Origin: Deltaproteobacteria bacterium | Lineage (GTDB): Bacteria; Myxococcota; Kuafuiibacteriia; Kuafuiibacteriales; Kuafuiibacteriaceae | DNA: 64,000 bases | Assembly: GCA_040218735.1 (NCBI GenBank) | Contig: JAVJQW010000057.1 | Location: forward strand, 500,005 to 564,004 | Direction: 5' to 3' | Shown here: positions 22,864 to 26,277 of the stretch, one piece after another | Numbering within the stretch: the first letter of the stretch is position 1 | Layout of the letters: the number at the start of each line of letters is the position of its first letter | Program-made: the position numbers and the translations under genes | The notes under the pieces: model-generated | The model's input: only the letters and a program-made list of their open reading frames with translations | Told to the model about the DNA's origin: nothing | The model's database searches: none

Positions 22864-24288
22864 TCAGGAAAACCGCGCCGCGATCTCTTGGACCCTCTGA
22901 CCGAGCTCCCACTTCAACACGTCGGCCGAAGCGTTCATCGCGTAAGCGTGGTGCGCGTCCCAGCTCGGGTTTCGCATCCCCTCGGCCGCGAACGGGACTC
23001 GCCAGCGTAGCTGCCGCGTCGCGAAGGTCGCGTAGAAGCGCGCGAGGGTGTCTCGGTCGGTCGCCGCGAGGCGATCGACCTGGGCTTCGATCTTCGCGAT
23101 CAGCTCGTCGCGCGCTGCTTCGGGCGTGACGGAGCGCGCCCAGCTCGCGTGGGCTTCGTGGCTCGTCGTCGCGCGTCCCCCCGTCATCCCGCCGAGCTTC
23201 GCGATCAAGACGGACTCGTCCGCGTAGTAGGCGTCGCGCGGGACGACCTTGCGCTCCGCCCACGCGCGCCCCTTCCACGCCGGTCCATCGTCGAACGGGA
23301 CGGCGGGCACCGTGTCCGGTGCGTCGAAGAGCTGCACGCCGAGTGAGGCGCCCGCGCGGTTCCCGGACAGGTCGCCGGTGACGAACCCATCGCCGAGGCC
23401 GCCGAACACGTGGAGCGTCGCTTCGATGCGCGCGGTGGGATCTTCGAGGTCCGAGTGGTCACCGAGGCGATCGAGATCGACCGAGGCCGGCGTCCCCTTC
23501 AGCTCGTACGCGCTCCCGACACGCACCGCCTGGTCCCACGCGCTCTGGTGGAGCGCGGAGTCGAAGTCGGGGCGCGGGATGAACGCCCAGACCTCGTCGT
23601 AGGCGGGCGGTCCGCCGAGGGTGCCGGGGAGCAGAGAGCTCGGGTAGCCCTTCACGCGATCGTACGCCTCGTCGACCTTCTTCGCGTCGTCGTTCGGATC
23701 CATCGCGTCGGCGACGGCGTCCATCGAGTCCGCGAGCTTGCCGTCGCCGTAGTTACGATCGAACAGCCACACGTACGCGAACATGCACTGCGCCGCGACG
23801 TGCCACGCACGGTCCATCGCGAAGCTCCCCTCGCGGTCGTCGGGGATGAAGCCGGGGAAGGCCATGCGGTTCTCACCGGCGACACCAAGGGCGTGGGCGG
23901 CGACGGCGACGACGGCCACGAGGTTCACACGCCGCGCGTGCGCGACCGGATCGTTGCCCGGCGTCGTCACCTGCTGCGCGGCGAGCGTTCGGGCCAGCGC
24001 GTACAGATCTGCGACGCGCTTCGGCGCGCGCGGTCCGCTCATCGCACTGCTGAGCTGACGAAATACGTTGCGTACGGGCGGCTGGTGCTCGATCTGCTGG
24101 GCGGCGAACGTCGCAAACGCGTGGTTGCCCTCGGCCGGGTCCAGGACCATCGGGAACAACACCCCCGCCGACGGCGGAAACGCGGGCACCGCCACGGGAT
24201 CGGCGGGCGCCGCAGAAGGCGTCGGAGGCGTCGAAACGGCCGGTGGAGCCGCGATCGTGGCGATCCGGCCGGCGCCGGGGATGTTCAC
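22864..24288 (-). CDS. Hypothetical protein with Pro-rich N-terminus and possible H/E/D metal site
   Basis: Coding bias from the GTG at 24288; DRAWH...YE...DLSGNRAG. Confidence 0.65.
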   Translation of the reverse strand: MNIPGAGRIATIAAPPAVSTPPTPSAAPADPVAVPAFPPSAGVLFPMVLDPAEGNHAFATFAAQQIEHQPPVRNVFRQLSSAMSGPRAPKRVADLYALARTLAAQQVTTPGNDPVAHARRVNLVAVVAVAAHALGVAGENRMAFPGFIPDDREGSFAMDRAWHVAAQCMFAYVWLFDRNYGDGKLADSMDAVADAMDPNDDAKKVDEAYDRVKGYPSSLLPGTLGGPPAYDEVWAFIPRPDFDSALHQSAWDQAVRVGSAYELKGTPASVDLDRLGDHSDLEDPTARIEATLHVFGGLGDGFVTGDLSGNRAGASLGVQLFDAPDTVPAVPFDDGPAWKGRAWAERKVVPRDAYYADESVLIAKLGGMTGGRATTSHEAHASWARSVTPEAARDELIAKIEAQVDRLAATDRDTLARFYATFATRQLRWRVPFAAEGMRNPSWDAHHAYAMNASADVLKWELGQRVQEIAARFS

Positions 24289-24399
24289 ACCGTCGACGGA
24301 CCCGACCACGGGTGAGTTTTCGGTCGAACGGGTGCGTTCGTTGCGCCGATCCGGGCGCGGGTGGACAGCGACGACGGTCGGCCAGGATACTGAAATTCG

Positions 24400-24762
24400 T
24401 TGGGTTCCTGGATCGCCGACCGTACCGCGCAGCGCGCGGCGGAGGACTTCCTCGCGCGCCACGCCACGCTGCACGACCTGCTCGTCGCGGGCGGTGAAGT
24501 GCTCGAGGTCGTAGTCCAGGACGAGTACACCCACGACGTGGTCGCCCGGGTCGCGAACACCATCGCGGTCTTCGACAGCACCTGACTGGGGGGTCTGCGG
24601 CAGGTCCTTGCCGCCACGCGAGTCCCGAGCGCCGATGAGCTGCTCGACCACCGACTCCGCACGGGGTGGCGGCCGACGCCGACCGCGCTCAACGACGGAC
24701 CGAAGATCCTCGGACACGCATCGACGCGCTGCGCACCGAACGGTGACTGCACCCGCGCGTAA
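24400..24762 (+). CDS. Candidate selenoprotein, 120 aa, with in-frame UGA at 24583-24585
   Basis: VVQDEYTHDVV...VFDST-UGA-LGGLRQV...DELLDHRLRTGWRPTPT...ILGHA; frame stays open to TAA at 24760-24762; SECIS-like hairpin follows. Confidence 0.65.
24597..24614 (+). promoter_or_regulatory. Bacterial SECIS-like hairpin GCGGCA-GGUCCU-UGCCGC
   Basis: Perfect 6-bp stem after an 11-nt spacer following UGA; G-initiated loop with GCAGGUC core. Confidence 0.6.
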
Positions 24763-24789
24763 GGCGACGACGCAGCGAACGAAGGCGCA

Positions 24790-26151
24790 TCACGGCGCGT
24801 CGCCGGGGAAGGGGTTCGACCAGCGCGCGTCACCGGCAATCGTCTCGTCGGTGAGCGTGTGCAGGAACGCGACGAGGGCAGCGACACCGTTCGGTCCCAG
24901 GTTCAATCGCACCGGTTGGCCCCCTTGCGGCGTGCGGAGGATGGGGTCGAGGTTCGGGTGCGCTTGGACCTCGCGGTCGTAGAAACGCACGACCCGCTCC
25001 AGCGTCGCGAAGCGACCGTCGTGCATGTACGGCGCGGACTGGGCGACGTTGCGGAGCGACGGTGACTTGAACTTGCCATCGTCCTGCGGCCGCCCGGTCA
25101 CGTCGCCAAAGCCGTTGTCGTTCGGATCGACGAGGCCGTTGTTCTTCGGCGCGACCATGAAGAACGCGGCGACGTTGTCCCCGGTGGGCGCGCCGGGCGG
25201 CGCGTTCGGCGGAGGCGGGGACACCGGGTTCTGCAGGAGGTGACACGTGGCGCACAACCCAGGCGGCAAGCCCTGTTGCTGACCGAAGAAGATGCGCTTG
25301 CCGAGGTTCTCCTGCGCCGTGAAGTTGGGGAAGTCGTCGCGGATGTCCGAGACCTGTCCGAGGCCCGCGTCCCACTTCGAACGGTAGGAGACGATCGAGC
25401 GGACGAACTGGGCGAGCGCGAGCGAGATGCGCTCGGAGGTCACCGTCGCGTCGCCGAACGCGTCGGTGAACAGCGGACCGTAGTAGTCGACGGCCGACAG
25501 ACGCGTGACCAACGCCTCCAACGTCATACCCATCTCGACCGCGTCCTGAATCGGCATCAGGACCTGCTCCTCCAGCGTGGCGGCGCGCTCGTCCCAGAAC
25601 ATCGAACCGCGGTGGTAGTAGCGAAGGTTGAGGAGCGGCATCGAGTTGCGGCCCGTCGCGCCCCCCTCGAAGCCCTCGGAGAGCGCTGCGGTGTCGGAGA
25701 ACGCCGTCGACTGCGGGTGGCACGAAGCACATGCCTTGGTGCCGTTCGCGCTGAGGCGTTTGTCGTAGAAGAGGACGCGACCGAGCGTCGCACCCGCGTC
25801 GGTGATCGGGTTGTCACCCGGCGTGTTGTCGAAGCCACGCATGCGCCCCGTGGTGAAGTGCGGCGGCAGGTCGTGCCGGTAGTCGAGGAGCGTGGCCGGC
25901 AGCTGCGGCGCCGGGAGCGCGGCGGTCGGGTCCGTCGGGTCCGTGGGATCGGTCGGGTCCGTCGGATCGGTGGGGTCCGTCGGGTCGGTGGGGTCCGCCG
26001 GATCCGCAGGGTCGGTCGGGTCCGTCGGATCCATCGGCGTCGTCCGATCCGTGCGCCCGGTCGGGTAGTAGGGCGTCCGTTCGGCGTCGTCCGTCTCGGG
26101 GACACCGCAGGCGGTCAGGGCGAGGGCAAGCAGGAGTCGGTTCGTCTTCAT
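24790..26151 (-). CDS. Di-heme cytochrome c peroxidase/MauG-family lipoprotein
   Basis: Lipobox LTAC; LGRVLFYDKRLS, CASCH, FWDERA, CATCH, FKSPSLRNV, PYMHDGRF. Confidence 0.92.
   Translation of the reverse strand: MKTNRLLLALALTACGVPETDDAERTPYYPTGRTDRTTPMDPTDPTDPADPADPTDPTDPTDPTDPTDPTDPTDPTAALPAPQLPATLLDYRHDLPPHFTTGRMRGFDNTPGDNPITDAGATLGRVLFYDKRLSANGTKACASCHPQSTAFSDTAALSEGFEGGATGRNSMPLLNLRYYHRGSMFWDERAATLEEQVLMPIQDAVEMGMTLEALVTRLSAVDYYGPLFTDAFGDATVTSERISLALAQFVRSIVSYRSKWDAGLGQVSDIRDDFPNFTAQENLGKRIFFGQQQGLPPGLCATCHLLQNPVSPPPPNAPPGAPTGDNVAAFFMVAPKNNGLVDPNDNGFGDVTGRPQDDGKFKSPSLRNVAQSAPYMHDGRFATLERVVRFYDREVQAHPNLDPILRTPQGGQPVRLNLGPNGVAALVAFLHTLTDETIAGDARWSNPFPGDAP
25925..26032 (-). repeat. 9-bp coding tandem repeat encoding (DPT/DPA)x12 linker
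   Basis: Directly visible in the peroxidase N-terminus. Confidence 0.9.
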
Positions 26152-26277
26152 CGTGTGCGTGGTTCTCCGTTCGTTCGGCCAAACCCGAAGGGGGTTGGAG
26201 CCGAACACCCATCCACGCGACGTCTGTCTCGAAAGTCCGCAGTCCGTGTATCGATGGGACGCAGATCACGACGATGA

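Follow-up and report, generated by a model that had tools for sequence, protein, structure and literature searches.

A putative new selenoprotein family, found in Myxococcota and other soil bacteria, with an in-frame UGA codon that is very likely decoded as selenocysteine

An open reading frame that starts with TTG at position 24400 of the window (the whole stretch of 64,000 nucleotides analysed here, from a genome of the Kuafuiibacteriaceae, Myxococcota) ends after 61 codons in ...VFDST-TGA, and past this TGA the same frame remains open for 58 codons (24586-24759), up to a TAA. The locus presents an otherwise open frame of 120 codons interrupted by one in-frame TGA, and the question that it raises is whether this triplet terminates a short peptide or is read as an amino acid within a longer protein. 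A preliminary description of this DNA proposed that the UGA is decoded as selenocysteine (Sec) and is followed by a hairpin resembling the SECIS element of fdhF; the ORF, the TGA, the 58-codon continuation, the spacer and the hairpin are all present where it had placed them. The comparative evidence makes it very likely that 24400-24762 on the plus strand is a single gene in which UGA codon 62 specifies Sec. The features of the locus are as follows.

24362-24391, + strand: promoter-like site (TGGACA, 18 nt, GATACT), a consensus match only
24400-24762, + strand: whole putative selenoprotein gene, 120 codons including Sec62, then TAA
24400-24402, + strand: probable TTG start codon, with an in-frame TGA upstream at 24391-24393
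24517-24537, + strand: codons for QDEYTHD (Q40-D46), the best-conserved family motif in a ten-row alignment (A1)
24583-24585, + strand: in-frame TGA, putative Sec62 codon in the motif S-T-U-L-G-G, from column conservation
24586-24596, + strand: 11-nt spacer from the UGA to the hairpin, the same spacing as in the fdhA-like gene of this genome
24597-24614, + strand: SECIS-like hairpin (5' arm 24597-24603, loop GUCC 24604-24607, 3' arm 24608-24614)
24730-24732, + strand: Cys111 codon, in the tail after LGHA
24748-24750, + strand: Cys117 codon, kept mainly in near relatives of the window
24760-24762, + strand: true stop codon TAA, read from the sequence

The TTG was chosen as the start since the next in-frame start codon, GTG at codon 34, would lose the conserved residues T23 and L24. 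The promoter-like site was found once, as against 0.0 expected from 50 shuffles. It is sigma-70-like and ends 8 nt before the TTG, so that the mRNA would be nearly leaderless if the site is real.

The same region is crossed on the opposite strand by an ORF of 617 aa (22864-24717, minus strand). One account of the locus would make this ORF the real gene and the plus-strand frame a by-product of high GC content, and it can point to the fact that the minus frame is open across the whole selenoprotein region and that antisense ORFs over the gene recur in relatives. However, within 24390-24660 GC is highest (0.85-0.88) at the third codon position of the plus frame (GC3) and lowest (0.40-0.42) at its second. 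Across 82 homologous sequences the codon-position entropy for plus-frame positions 1, 2 and 3 is 0.60, 0.55 and 1.24, which would place the greatest variability at the first codon position of the minus ORF. Moreover, the coding signal of the minus strand is kept only to about 24300, and the minus ORF has neither a Pfam or NCBIfam match nor a tblastn match in a locus from the same genus (L034). The GC periodicity and the homolog entropy together imply that the minus ORF is over-extended through the antisense of a real plus-strand gene, and we regard the opposite assignment as extremely improbable.

As to the surroundings of the gene, the minus-strand ORF would comprise roughly 480 aa if confined to 22864 to about 24300, the listed 617-aa form being over-extended; in L034 a PALP gene stands directly upstream in its place. 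On the other side lies a convergent minus-strand gene (24790-26208), 27 nt from the selenoprotein stop and itself ending in TGA, whose product resembles di-haem cytochrome c peroxidases of the MauG-MbnH type (PF03150, 170 bits; 220 bits against TIGR04039, under its cut-off of 363 bits) and carries a run of PTD/PAD repeats at the N-terminus. Conservation of the neighbours of the window gene was not found beyond the same genus, and clustering of flanking ORFs from 81 loci gave lineage-specific neighbours only (cytochrome c with rhodanese, SNase, PD40, DUF4112, DoxX and redoxin). The largest cluster of flanking ORFs was partly an artefact made of antisense ORFs over the gene itself.

To follow the TGA column through relatives, we carried out a six-frame search of 61 related genomes, the window's genome included. 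The protein is encoded in nine of them, each time with exactly one in-frame stop, which is TGA and falls in the same column, in the context (F/Y)(D/A)(S/C/T)T-stop-LG(G/A). An alignment-based pattern scan of one genome per species identified 407 loci that encode a relative, and in the best 80 of these 407 the column holds TGA in 80/80, so that neither TAA nor TAG ends the homologs here; the true terminal stops of the same 80 loci are mixed (TGA 45, TAG 19, TAA 15, contig end 1). A second scan, seeded with Cys homologs (an alignment of 3 sequences), returned 80 loci with 78 TGA, 1 TGC and 1 unresolved. The TGC locus, L114, comes from an Acidobacteriota MAG, and its codon was confirmed in the DNA, as the preliminary description had hoped when it called for Cys-containing homologs at this column. 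With duplicates removed, 146/147 distinct homologous sequences from genome assemblies carry TGA at the column and 1 carries TGC. The pattern in both scans contains QDE(Y/F)TH and hence biases them toward that motif; they are unbiased against Cys forms, since one pattern of the first scan demanded a Cys codon at the column.

Conservation at the protein level spans the TGA on both sides, as anticipated in the preliminary description, and the downstream frame, which retains the motifs GW.P.P and ILGHA, has no start of its own. It is this comparative pattern, 146/147 TGA together with conservation on both sides, that lifts the locus above chance. The family is present in hundreds of genomes of Myxococcota, Acidobacteriota, Gemmatimonadota and Planctomycetota, and nearly all of its members use Sec and not Cys. 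Record titles place among the carriers Kofleriaceae, Polyangiaceae, Haliangiales, Myxococcus xanthus, Corallococcus (two complete genomes), Pyxidicoccus and Paraliomyxa, and further Pyrinomonadaceae, Blastocatellia, Thermoanaerobaculia, Gemmatimonadaceae and Isosphaeraceae. This distribution also bears on the idea that a gene with Cys or Trp here was inactivated recently and left a pseudogene: a single-base change would indeed turn TGC or TGG into TGA, but the TGA is common to 146 of the 147 sequences across at least four phyla and both halves are under purifying selection, which leaves the pseudogene with hardly any probability.

Searched exhaustively with the family profile, 1.84 billion cluster representatives yielded 694 matches at E <= 0.001. 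Among the 150 matches listed, the large majority are halves that end at profile position 62 or start just after it, a pattern expected if gene callers cut the gene at the TGA. From the listed matches we took 28 full-length relatives and read the Sec column by eye: it holds Cys in 12, Trp in 4, Ser in 4, Arg in 2, Pro in 1 and Gly in 1, and is unclear in 4. The Trp, Ser, Arg, Gly and Pro variants show that the Sec residue is replaceable in some lineages. Among 56 metagenome loci found with one of the relatives (P0002), 47 have TGA and two (L286 and L287) have TGG, the other 7 being partial or left out of the reading. L286 and L287 are close relatives of P0002 on metagenome contigs, with an otherwise intact gene that reads FETS-W-LG, and their TGG is a one-base escape from TGA. 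We considered whether W at this column in database proteins is a TGA translated under code 4, and rejected this on the real TGG in the DNA of L286 and L287.

If the TGA were an ordinary stop, the 61-residue peptide would be the whole product, and what follows would be a small gene or a non-coding or RNA element. Gene callers do split the family in this way, as the halves that make up most of the listed database matches illustrate, and TGA is used as a normal terminator here, for example at the end of the adjacent minus-strand gene (24790-24792). Yet the downstream half lacks a start codon after the TGA, amino-acid conservation with third-position variation runs straight through the triplet, the internal stop is nearly invariant whereas the terminal stops vary, contiguous Cys forms exist, and in a sample of 301 genomes the gene is confined to those with a selA match. 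Ordinary termination is on these grounds very improbable.

The machinery for Sec insertion is present in the window's genome, which spans 11.6 Mb over 70 contigs and is 96.5% complete. Its tRNA-Sec reaches 70.4 bits, where the cut-off is 47, and ARAGORN assigns it the anticodon tca; selB scores 341 bits against 242, selA 493 against 268 and selD 326 against 125. The selD gene is itself a selenoprotein gene, with the motif SGG-U-AAK and a hairpin after the UGA (C18:152317-153240, L030), and an fdhA-like gene with the motif QCAAT-U-HAPT lies at C55:398376-399125 (L194). To relate the family to this machinery we used an even phylum sample of 301 genomes, in which a carrier was defined by a strong match (E <= 3.2e-31). 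Strong matches occur in 65/301 genomes, with the in-frame TGA in all 65. Cross-tabulated by hand, a selA match is present in 65/65 carriers versus 210/301 genomes overall, a tally that includes the unpublished genome G195, a non-carrier, and 0/91 genomes without a selA match carry the gene; these are counts only, the related genomes not being independent. The preliminary description had named three observations that would speak against Sec, namely homologs that stop here with TAA or TAG, a downstream frame that is not conserved or has its own start, and genomes with the UGA form that lack Sec machinery. All three were tested, and all favour the Sec reading, the last through the 65 selA-positive carriers and through selA, selB, selC and selD in the window's own genome.

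The hairpin follows the UGA after 11 nt as GCGGCA (24597-24602), GGTCCT (24603-24608) and TGCCGC (24609-24614), and RNAfold closes one further pair, G-U, for a stem of 7 bp and the loop GUCC at -10.1 kcal/mol. In E. coli the fdhF SECIS likewise starts 11 nt after the UGA and has a GCAGGUC apical core that is bound by SelB, and its upper stem contains a bulged U. The window stem, as the preliminary description noted, is predicted to be perfect and lacks this feature of fdhF. The best comparator lies within the organism itself, and the same SelB must read both hairpins, just as both genes would depend on selA, selB, selC and selD: the fdhA-like gene of this genome also has an in-frame UGA, an 11-nt spacer and a 7-bp G+C-rich stem, with the small apical loop GGUCU. 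Its loop starts with GGUC and that of the window hairpin with GUC. The likeness to an fdhF-type SECIS proposed earlier is supported by this hairpin from the same genome. The two proteins are unrelated, the window protein having ~120 aa, no molybdopterin domain and T-U-L-G in place of U-H-x-P.

Taken alone, the window hairpin is not beyond chance, since at a GC content of 68.6% shuffled sequences fold as well: the 86-nt region folds no better than its shuffles (z +1.02), 176/200 of which fold at least equally well. Rfam gave no match on 24300-24900 at E <= 10. [quoted passage not shown] The window hairpin, whose loop lies 18 nt after the UGA, falls within these limits in stem, loop, distance and energy. 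We applied our own version of the published rules, restricted to contiguous stems, and 33/82 family members passed, compared with 382/8039 random positions (4.7%) and 887/19168 other TGA triplets (4.6%); a test based on MFE was passed by 39/82 members versus 185/3222 in the background (5.7%).

The position of the hairpin is conserved among relatives, and its register varies by clade across the 82 members. In 29/82 a perfect 6-bp stem begins 11 nt past the UGA and has the loop GGUC or AGUU; in 30/82 such a stem lies 17 nt past the UGA, its loop being mostly CGUGU; and 23/82, the window's clade among them, have other registers. The covarying hairpins that the preliminary description looked for are found in the first of these registers, where covariation is 0.254 as against 0.128 +/- 0.015 in shuffles, a value reached by 0/500, with changes on both sides in 5/6 pairs and slid controls at 0.061-0.210. 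The second register is conserved, and covariation was not found in it.

These observations also weigh on the idea that the UGA is read through without Sec, by a near-cognate Trp or Cys tRNA or by programmed readthrough that the hairpin stimulates. The TGG variants L286 and L287 fit an insertion of Trp, but the strict co-occurrence with selA (every carrier, and none of the selA-less genomes), the match of hairpin spacing and loop to the organism's own fdhA-like SECIS, and Cys as the commonest replacement among the 28 relatives all argue for Sec, and readthrough of this kind seems to us very unlikely. Under the favoured Sec reading, UGA codon 62 would be decoded by the standard bacterial route, in which the mRNA hairpin 11 nt downstream (7 bp, GUCC) would recruit SelB carrying Sec-tRNA(Sec) to the ribosome, and translation would go on for 58 codons past the UGA with no termination. 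The gene is real and very probably encodes a selenoprotein; as far as the catalogues consulted reach, the family is new, and the mechanism would be ordinary SelB/SECIS decoding.

Transcription of a homolog could be followed in two RNA-seq runs labelled as the same species as the Myxococcus locus L096. Reads cover both halves of the homolog at similar depth on either side of the TGA, with no listed difference at the TGA. The data appear to be unstranded, the two mate orientations having similar depth, and the coverage is continuous with the flanks, so that they report transcription of the region and are silent on recoding. Upstream of this homolog (L096:5736-5898), 161 nt of the L096 reference are replaced by 131 other letters in the RNA-seq contigs and reads, a strain difference.

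The product would be a protein of ~13 kDa with no signal peptide evident in its N-terminus on reading by eye. Four motifs mark the family, QDE(Y/F)THD, T-U-L-G, GW.P.P and LGHA.C, and in alignment A1 (10 rows) Q40, D41, E42, H45 and D46 are invariant. The Sec motif is (D/E)(S/T)T-U-LG(G/A), and the 3 residues on either side of U do not include Cys. Neither CxxU nor UxxC occurs in the family, which agrees with the earlier remark that a thioredoxin-type CxxU is lacking. The suggestion made at that stage that the two C-terminal Cys could be resolving residues is only partly supported: a Cys within 4 residues after LGHA (Cys111 in the window) is present in 72/82 members, and Cys in the tail is missing from 9/82, whereas Cys117 is confined mainly to near relatives, being shared by the 6 A1 rows closest to the window plus one more, P0002.

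An AlphaFold model built with the 10-row alignment has a pLDDT of 88.1 and a pTM of 0.81. It contains two N-terminal helices, strands at 33-39, 45-51, 54-60 and 65-72, a helix at 78-87 and two short strands. Sec62 is placed in the turn that joins strands 3 and 4 of a four-stranded sheet, and QDEYTHD covers the last part of strand 1 and the turn leading into strand 2; if the sheet is a simple meander, the Sec62 turn and the QDE..HD turn would lie at the same sheet edge. In a sequence-profile search of the PDB the best E was 0.97, neither the window model nor the model of a paralog described below had a Foldseek match in the PDB at E <= 0.001, VIA-align against 48,161 chains gave best Z values of 4.6 (window) and 5.2 (paralog), both under the usual background, and the best score in the ESM Atlas was 0.76, under the level of a lead. 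Thioredoxin-fold chains do not appear in the Foldseek or VIA lists, although such a fold may still be present. Searches of Pfam and NCBIfam 20.0 with the window protein and 12 + 12 homologs reached no curated cut-off, the weak matches all lying at E 0.045-0.16, and the database names of family members are 'hypothetical protein' only. From the conservation of the QDE..HD motif and the predicted model, we tentatively suggest a reactive selenol assisted by His45 and acidic residues, which might be redox-active or metal-binding, and the usually present C-terminal Cys could serve for resolution or as a second ligand.

A second family, of ~150 aa and with the motif order QGEFHHD ... ATNCNGG ... RCPDN ... 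HWFDPC (loci L202, L203, L204 and L206-L285), was reached from four weak matches without a stop codon in the phylum sample. It comprises at least 1832 database clusters, of which the named ones are called 'hypothetical protein', with no Pfam domain in any cluster, and Pfam and NCBIfam searches with 3 of these paralogs gave no family. Alignment of the Sec family with this paralog family by hhalign gave a probability of 97.2% and E 2.9e-11 over 77 columns, with the Sec column aligned to an invariant Cys of the paralogs and QDE.THD to QGEFHHD. The two families thus share a homologous core and a similar order of predicted secondary structure; the paralog family differs in that it always has Cys and possesses an additional region at the C-terminus, where more Cys and His residues are invariant. 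It occurs in Polyangia (Sorangium, Chondromyces), Gemmatimonadota (Gemmatimonadaceae) and others, gave no match at E <= 0.001 in the window's genome, and has no conserved gene neighbour.

With regard to novelty, the 2026 inventory of prokaryotic selenoproteins comprises 119 families and subfamilies, nearly all with an InterPro-type identifier, and its Table 1 holds no family that matches the window protein or the T-U-L-G motif (PMC13188914). Like the families inventoried there, the present one has a single Sec, rare Cys homologs and truncated or split database entries; unlike most of them, its Sec forms far outnumber its Cys forms. Passages of deep-Sep (PMC12013277) and BSepDB (PMC13326102) mention neither Myxococcota nor a matching family, and open-access full texts on selenoproteins in Myxococcus, Myxococcota or MAGs offered nothing relevant in their titles or the opening of their abstracts. 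The earlier suggestion that the family may be undescribed is accordingly upheld as far as Pfam, NCBIfam and the 2026 inventory reach. A more far-reaching proposal, which leans on the predicted structures and for which we see the chances as evenly balanced, is that this undescribed, almost obligately Sec-using family may have a fold without a solved relative, may form a new superfamily with its Cys paralogs, and may present in its selenol- or thiol-bearing beta-turn and QDE..HD motif a new redox or metal-handling centre of aerobic soil bacteria.

What sets the family apart is how widely it occurs, that it uses Sec almost exclusively, that cultured myxobacteria carry it and that our searches gave no recognised domain or fold. 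Since its relatives stand in databases mostly as truncated halves, the carrier genomes, which number in the hundreds, are probably mis-annotated and their selenoproteomes under-counted. Known selenoproteomes are dominated by anaerobes; this family occurs mainly in aerobic soil lineages and may help to explain why these retain the costly Sec machinery. The Cys paralog family is likewise uncharacterised, and solving either family would inform the other. Cultured Myxococcus xanthus and complete Corallococcus genomes contain homologs, and both Sec insertion and the function of the protein are genetically testable.
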